Part shown: piece by piece, positions 7,841 to 9,055 of the stretch
Layout: the number at the start of each line of letters is the position of its first letter
How positions within the stretch are numbered: position 1 is the first letter of the stretch
Source of the DNA: a virus
Lineage: Duplodnaviria > Heunggongvirae > Uroviricota > Caudoviricetes
Strand: one strand, 5' to 3'
Virus record (IMG/VR): IMGVR_UViG_2571042690_000013
DNA length: 9,462 bases
Translations under genes and position numbers: made by a program
Notes under the pieces: model-generated
What the model was told of the DNA's origin: nothing
The model's input: the letters and a program-made list of their open reading frames with translations, nothing else
Database searches by the model: none

Positions 7841-9055
7841 TCACCCCCTGAATCCCGGCGGTATTTCAGTGTCCGGTTCAGAAATGTGATTCACGCAACG
7901 CTGCGCAGGCGAACGCCCCAGGCGGATAACCAGTTCATCCCATTTTTCCCGGAGTTTTGCCGGACTCATGATGTTTTTTACCCAGAACGAATCCCGCTGG
8001 AGACGCCCAAACATTTCACAAATTTGTCTGTGAGTTCTGCCATCCAGCATCCGCATTGTGCGAACGTCATTGGCCCATGCTGTCCAGTTGGGTTCTTTCG
8101 GTCTAGTGATCTCAATTTCAGTGTCCGGTTCAGAAATGTGATTCACGCAACGCTGCGCAGGCGAACGCCCCAGGCGGATAACCAGTTCATCCCATTTTTC
8201 CCGGAGTTTTGCCGGACTCATGATGTTTTTTACCCAGAACGAATCCCGCTGGAGACGCCCAAACATTTCACAAATTTGTCTGTGAGTTCTGCCATCCAGC
8301 ATCCGCATTGTGCGAACGTCATTGGCCCATGCTGTCCAGTTGGGTTCTTTCGGTCTAGTGATCTCGCCATCATAGCTGGCCGCCTGCTCGTAAAGACTCA
8401 CGATTCGTCCCCAGATCCACTGTGCGCACACCAAATCTTCCTGACTTCCCCACTGGCGTTTTTTCGCACTGAACACAACCGCGTCAGGGTGTCGGGTTAA
8501 AAAATCCTGTTCAGCCGTCTGCGGGTCCGGTTGCGAAGCGTCCGGACAAGAAGATCTTTTATCTGACGGATCAGGTTTTAATACTGACGGATCGGGGTCA
8601 ATCATCGGCCCCCTAATCGGCAGTTTTTTATCAACAGTTGATCCATCAAAATTTGACGGGTCAACCGTTGAGGGGTCAATATTTGACGGGTCAACTGTTA
8701 ACGGGTCATTTTTTGCCGGGCTAATTTTTCTTTTCGGTTTATATGACTCACGCGCCGCCGCCGCAGCTGCTTCGAGTTTTTCCACATTAAGCCGATAGAT
8801 ATTGCTTACATTACGCCCACCGACCTTACGCTCTTCCTTCGTCAGCCAGCCCTCTTTCGCCAGTTCTGCAATAGCCGATTTCACTGTGGATTCACTTCTT
8901 GCACCGATCTGACGCCGGATAGTTTCAATGGCAGGCCATGACACGCCCTCGTCATTGCTGTAGTCTGCAAGACGGGCCATAACCGCCACCCTGGATAAGA
9001 TCATGCCGGTGAAGGCGCACCCTTCCCAGACAAGACCATGAAGCTTGCTGCTCAT
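7841..9055 (-). CDS. Replication initiator / replisome organiser (lambda O analogue) with N-terminal winged-helix domain; contains an internal 84-codon perfect tandem duplication
   Basis: Preferred start is ATG 9055 (MSSKLHGLVW...) with GGGGG 4 nt upstream; the track ORF starts at GTG 9070. The N-terminus has an HTH-like segment, the middle encodes DPS(N/T)(I/V)D peptide repeats from the DNA iterons, and the segment EITRPKEPNW...HISEPDTEI occurs twice consecutively. Confidence 0.75.
   Translation of the reverse strand: MSSKLHGLVWEGCAFTGMILSRVAVMARLADYSNDEGVSWPAIETIRRQIGARSESTVKSAIAELAKEGWLTKEERKVGGRNVSNIYRLNVEKLEAAAAAARESYKPKRKISPAKNDPLTVDPSNIDPSTVDPSNFDGSTVDKKLPIRGPMIDPDPSVLKPDPSDKRSSCPDASQPDPQTAEQDFLTRHPDAVVFSAKKRQWGSQEDLVCAQWIWGRIVSLYEQAASYDGEITRPKEPNWTAWANDVRTMRMLDGRTHRQICEMFGRLQRDSFWVKNIMSPAKLREKWDELVIRLGRSPAQRCVNHISEPDTEIEITRPKEPNWTAWANDVRTMRMLDGRTHRQICEMFGRLQRDSFWVKNIMSPAKLREKWDELVIRLGRSPAQRCVNHISEPDTEIPPGFRG
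7863..8366. repeat. Perfect 252-bp tandem direct duplication (2 copies) within the O-like gene
   Basis: 7863-8113 is identical to 8115-8365 by direct comparison. The period is 252 bp (84 codons), so the duplication is in-frame. Confidence 0.9.
8563..8709. repeat. Iteron cluster (putative phage origin) inside the O-like gene
   Basis: At least seven dyad-symmetric 12-mers of form YTGA-N4-TCAR: CTGACGGATCAG (8563), CTGACGGATCGG (8584), TTGATCCATCAA (8638), TTGACGGGTCAA (8653 and 8683), TTGAGGGGTCAA (8668), TTAACGGGTCAT (8698). An AT-rich stretch follows at 8710-8740. Confidence 0.6.

Follow-up and report, generated by a model that had tools for sequence, protein, structure and literature searches.

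The stretch of DNA analysed here (the window; 9,462 bp) is the entire contig AYNG01000035.1 (GCA_000506465.2; positions 1–9462, reversed) of the draft genome of Escherichia coli LAU-EC7. Towards its right-hand end, a ydaT-family gene, a gene for a replication initiator and a gene for a DnaC-like helicase loader follow one another on the minus strand (Table 1). Over its full length, the initiator matches the PHROG family phrog_391 ('replication initiation O-like') with an E value of 4e-115, and its N-terminal domain matches Pfam HTH_36 (27.4 bits against a cut-off of 25). Together with the iterons within the gene, these matches uphold the original prediction of an O-like replication initiator, and the IstB_IS21 and phrog_50 matches of the neighbouring gene do the same for its reading as a DnaC-like loader. 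The loader gene begins 7 nt past the initiator stop codon and is untouched by the artefact described below. At the other side, the ydaT-family gene runs into the contig end; in the sequence type 131 (ST131) strain JJ1886, the corresponding toxin YdaT family protein extends past the end of the window.

As far as can be judged from sequence, the arrangement resembles that of lambda O and P, with a DNA-binding domain at the N terminus of the initiator, candidate iterons inside its own gene and the loader gene directly after it; with the O-like profile match, these features would place the protein among the lambda-O-like initiators. Unlike in lambda, the loader is an AAA+ protein of the DnaC/IstB type rather than lambda P, and the N-terminal domain of the initiator has its Pfam match in HTH_36 and not in a lambda O family; its C-terminal region matches PHROGs for DnaD-like helicase loaders and replisome organizers. 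The iteron-like array is the presumed origin, and its location within the initiator gene recalls that of lambda ori within O. The array also encodes a repetitive D-P-S-x-(V/I/F) peptide, which falls within residues 107–169 of the protein, a segment predicted to be disordered.

Table 1. Features of the initiator region and of the assembly pieces that make up the window (window coordinates)
Feature	Position	Strand	Description
Piece X	1–8113		Prophage-1-specific stretch; stops just before the N of the record
DnaC-like helicase loader gene	7088–7834	−	Pfam IstB_IS21, 7e-19; phrog_50, 8e-82
Apparent initiator ORF	7841–9055	−	404 aa as assembled; the real gene is almost certainly 963 nt / 320 aa (WP_000095675.1)
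Copy 1	7863–8113		Final 251 nt of piece X, equal to the initial 251 nt of repeat R
Junction base	8114		'A' in the window, 'N' in AYNG01000035.1; one-base scaffold gap
Copy 2	8115–8365		Initial 251 nt of piece Y
Piece Y	8115–9462		1,348 nt, exactly R; separate node, ends with the contig
Iteron-like array	8631–8729		15-nt period, about 5 copies (TRF period 15/30); inside the initiator ORF, outside the 251-nt repeat
ydaT-family gene	9078–9462	−	Pfam YdaT_toxin; truncated by the contig end (record positions 1–385 abut the end)

Within the initiator gene, Tandem Repeats Finder (TRF) reports a head-to-tail repeat with a period of 252 nt at 7863–8365 (2.0 copies, 100% matches, score 1006), a result that vastly exceeds chance. 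The 404-residue translation of the ORF contains an 84-residue block (EITRPK...SEPDTEI) twice, in frame. Described originally as a perfect 252-bp in-frame tandem duplication, the repeat is indeed head to tail and in frame, but it is exact only over 251 nt. A repeat search of the window returns two identical copies of that length (7863–8113 and 8115–8365), and a base-by-base check finds s[i] = s[i+252] to be true for i = 7863 to 8113 only. The odd base, 8114, is an 'A' in the window that differs both from 7862 ('T') and from 8366 ('G'). The two copies meet without microhomology.

Comparison with the source record accounts for the odd base. Once reverse-complemented, AYNG01000035.1 matches the window at every base but 8114, which is N in the record and A in the window. 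The N is position 1349 of the record and can be read there directly, within '...actgaaatngagatcact...'. Because the record has 'N', the 'A' of the window is a stand-in for an unknown base, and for the same reason the junction, which is laid out as ...GGTCTAGTGATCTC-x-ATTTCAGTGTCCGG... with x undefined in the record, was never sequenced. Public gene calls on AYNG01000035.1 include the resulting 409-residue 'protein'.

The position of this N relative to the rest of the prophage was examined in JJ1886, which aligns to the whole window over 9,194 bp. A base-by-base alignment of the two shows only three differences: four SNPs at 3952–3960, a 16-bp insertion at 4668–4683 and the 252-bp insertion considered here. 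The JJ1886 neighbourhood is the same as that of the window (Cro/CI, YdaT, initiator, DnaC-like loader, DUF1627 and DUF977), and its initiator contains one copy of the block in a protein of 320 aa, compared with the apparent 404 aa in the window. JJ1886 also harbours a second lambdoid prophage that encodes an identical initiator protein, such that two of its loci, P423_RS07350 and P423_RS11370 (both WP_000095675.1, 320 aa), are 100% identical to the window gene minus one 252-nt copy. The two prophages diverge after the initiator: the DnaC-like loader and DUF1627 follow it in prophage 1 only (segment L001, 10072–11787), whereas DUF977 comes directly after it in prophage 2 (segment L002, 3517–4942).

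The longest identical run between prophage 1 and prophage 2 in JJ1886 is exactly 1,348 bp. This repeat, R, takes in the greater part of the initiator gene and a portion of ydaT, and corresponds to window positions 7863–9462 after the extra copy is taken out; the bases that border it, 7862 and 9463, differ between the JJ1886 prophages. On its left side the apparent duplication unit therefore begins exactly with R, and the contig stops where R stops on the right. The N is flanked by two separate pieces bounded by this genomic repeat, of which piece Y is R itself, and piece X reaches its last prophage-1-specific base at 7862 and then overhangs into the shared repeat by 251 nt. The same overhang is seen independently at the opposite contig end. 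There, window positions 1–251 are an exact prophage 1/prophage 2 repeat in JJ1886 and the initial prophage-1-specific base is 252; the contig starts exactly 251 nt ahead of that base, and inter-prophage repeats therefore bound it on both sides. This left end lies in tRNA-Arg/tRNA-Ile DNA with the same sequence in the two ST131 prophages (JJ1886 segment L001, 2907–3251). The duplicated length thus equals the overhang of piece X at each of its ends (1–251 and 7863–8113) and approximates the 250-bp MiSeq read, and overhangs of 251 nt on either side bear the signature of a de Bruijn unitig with k − 1 = 251, close to the read length.

The assembly history agrees with this signature. The LAU-EC7 genome (AYNG) was obtained from 250-bp paired-end MiSeq reads with the A5 pipeline, giving 101 contigs in 77 scaffolds (PMC3931373). 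In A5, contigs from the de Bruijn assembler IDBA are scaffolded and extended by SSPACE, broken at suspected misassemblies and passed through SSPACE again (PMC3441570). The record accordingly comes from a de Bruijn assembler (IDBA) with subsequent scaffolding (SSPACE). SSPACE writes a single 'n' where it expects two contigs to touch or overlap but detects no overlap. A literature search returned nothing citable for this single-'n' behaviour or for the k settings of A5-miseq, and the exact k and the action of the scaffolder in the present case are inferred.

We propose that the apparent tandem duplication arose as an artefact when contig AYNG01000035.1 of the LAU-EC7 draft assembly was scaffolded, an explanation to which we assign a probability of about 97%, and that the gene in reality almost certainly has the usual single-copy form and encodes the 320-aa O-like initiator WP_000095675.1. 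LAU-EC7, like other ST131 strains, would carry two lambdoid prophages with the exact 1,348-bp R in common; that LAU-EC7 itself has prophage 2 is suggested by JJ1886 and by where the piece boundaries lie. A de Bruijn-graph assembler would represent R and the prophage-1-specific DNA as separate pieces, and adjoining pieces of the graph would overlap by k − 1 bases, here 251 nt, or roughly the MiSeq read length. The scaffolder would then have set X and Y in the right order, as in JJ1886, left their overlap unmerged and written one N, with the outcome that the 251 overlapping bases would be present twice and that the added base (251 + 1 = 252) would preserve the frame. The DNA of LAU-EC7 would, on this account, presumably contain no such junction. 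The artefact looks like a clean in-frame duplication of a domain because 252 is a multiple of three, which under this model is a 1-in-3 coincidence and to that extent a counterpoint to it. A second counterpoint is that the 16-bp tandem insertion and the patch of four SNPs on the same contig, both private to it relative to its clonal relatives, are left unexplained by a scaffold join. An assembly artefact had been one of three options offered originally for the lack of divergence between the copies, and it is the one favoured by the N at the junction, by the piece boundaries and by the failure to find a second genome or homologue with two copies.

The same observations bear on a genuine and very recent 252-bp in-frame duplication, private to LAU-EC7, that would add a second C-terminal helical subdomain and in which the N would be no more than a low-quality call. 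Points in its favour come from the predicted protein and from the gene. In the AlphaFold model of the single-copy form, a winged-helix N-terminal domain is joined by a disordered linker (residues 107–169, the iteron region) to a confident helical C-terminal domain (178–297), and the repeated block corresponds to residues 231–314 of the 320-aa protein, comprising the last five helices of the C-terminal domain and the disordered tail. The predicted start of the block lies in a loop right after a long helix (205–229), and the block includes a confidently modelled helical bundle (240–295). The frame is kept, the final 22 nt of the gene are intact, as is the ribosome-binding site of the loader, and the contig holds another private tandem insertion, the one of 16 bp. 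Against this, the junction base is an N in the record rather than a defined sequence, microhomology is lacking at the junction, and the ends of the unit and of the contig match the boundaries of the exact prophage 1/2 repeat to the base, with an identical 251-nt overhang at the far contig end; a real event needs no such positions. We consider a genuine duplication very unlikely. The related proposal that it would be a recent, recA-unstable duplication loses its footing for the same reasons, as the junction is an N and the ends of the unit fall where assembly-graph pieces should end. A variant, in which a real private 252-bp duplication carries a poor call at the N and its coincidence with the repeat boundaries stems from homology-guided recombination between the prophages, is, in our estimate, slightly less probable again.

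A Foldseek search of the initiator against the PDB returned mainly winged-helix regulators, including MarR-type proteins, with one DnaD model at rank 2, all at E > 0.001; the winged-helix matches presumably reflect the N-terminal domain, and the search assigned no fold to the duplicated C-terminal block. A profile search of solved structures gave no significant match.

The junction itself was found in none of the other genome and protein collections searched. A 50-mer centred on it had no matches in 5,426 complete E. coli genomes, a query whose flanks are too short to seed on a single copy, whereas a 51-nt control query did give matches. The exact junction 29-mer found no match in GTDB representative genomes or in IMG/VR, nor did the 29-mer with N at the junction base in JGI metagenomes, such that the junction was recovered from no independent assembly or isolate in these collections. 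By exact look-up, both the 404-aa and the 409-aa proteins were absent from a collection of 15 billion proteins in which the 320-aa form is present on at least 1,000 contigs; the missing exact match probably reflects a deposited product with an unknown residue at the ATN codon.

Relatives of the gene are uniformly single copy. A 1,501-bp query across the gene had matches in 3,303 complete E. coli genomes, and the best 40 listed matches, all 100% identical and mostly ST131/O25b:H4, each cover 1,249 bp in two pieces, which corresponds to one copy. At the protein level, where 1,006 homologues scored at E ≤ 1e-5 and 120 were listed, no listed homologue covers more than 79% of the 404-aa query, and among the 134 proteins compared the block is present once in all 132 that contain it, with a second copy in none. 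The check suggested originally, a comparison with homologous initiators, thereby identifies the single-copy form as the norm. These data also speak to an old, fixed domain repeat, that is, a two-copy C-terminal domain normal in this initiator family. Tandem DnaD-like domains occur in other replication proteins, for example B. subtilis DnaB, and the C-terminal region of the present initiator matches 'DnaD-like helicase loader' PHROGs, although no direct support for this explanation was found. An ancient repeat would show two diverged and conserved copies, whereas those in the window are 100% identical and both JJ1886 and the best 40 listed matches, themselves 100% identical, have one copy; together with the homologue counts, this makes an old domain repeat next to inconceivable.

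The letter shown at 8114 invites one further explanation, in which the locus is a product of inter-prophage recombination with its junction 'A' copied from prophage 2. JJ1886 prophage 2 reads 'cggcggA/ATTTCAG' where prophage 1 reads 'cggcggT/ATTTCAG', and the four-SNP patch on the contig is identical to the prophage-2 DUF968 allele. The match at the junction is coincidental, however, and comes from the rendering of the window, and we regard such a recombination product as extremely improbable. As for the 'A' itself, an origin in prophage 2, whether through recombination or through a chimeric join, is ruled out, as the record has N at 8114.

For the biology of the prophage, the consequence of the scaffolding artefact is that the initiator is the common single-copy 320-aa protein, with no sign of altered replication initiation. 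The suggestion that a doubled C-terminal domain could change the stoichiometry of initiation is left unsupported, given a junction that is an N and was never sequenced and homologues that are single copy. More generally, a single-N join in a draft assembly with an unmerged k − 1 overlap can mimic a clean in-frame domain duplication. The case shares with other false duplications at scaffold gaps the N at the junction, a duplicated length equal to the 251-nt overhang of a graph piece, pieces that end at genomic repeat boundaries and the type of pipeline, a de Bruijn assembler and then a paired-end scaffolder; it is unusual in that 251 + 1 is divisible by three and that the N is shown as A, and nothing essential differs. 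Such mimicry is likelier where ambiguous bases appear as A, with scaffold gaps hidden from a reader of the sequence alone. Scans of raw windows would do well to keep N visible and to treat with suspicion any exact tandem repeat next to a contig end whose length is close to that of a read or k-mer.

Two further differences from JJ1886 are private to the contig. The 16-bp tandem insertion (CCTCGCAGAGGTCTTT; 4668–4683, within an array at 4668–4704) is flanked by a 5-nt repeat, CCTCG, and lies within hokD (minus strand, start codon at 4777), so that the 51-aa Hok toxin goes out of frame after residue 31. Neither JJ1886 nor any of the 5,426 complete E. coli genomes has the insertion, which could be a real slippage mutation that inactivates the toxin or an error in the contig. 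The four SNPs (3952, 3955, 3958 and 3960) distinguish the window from the prophage-1 DUF968 gene of JJ1886, match the paralogous prophage-2 allele and lead to one change, D69N; the exact DUF968 protein of the window is on record solely on AYNG01000035.1. The patch is either a short tract of inter-prophage gene conversion or the result of paralogue mixing by the assembler.
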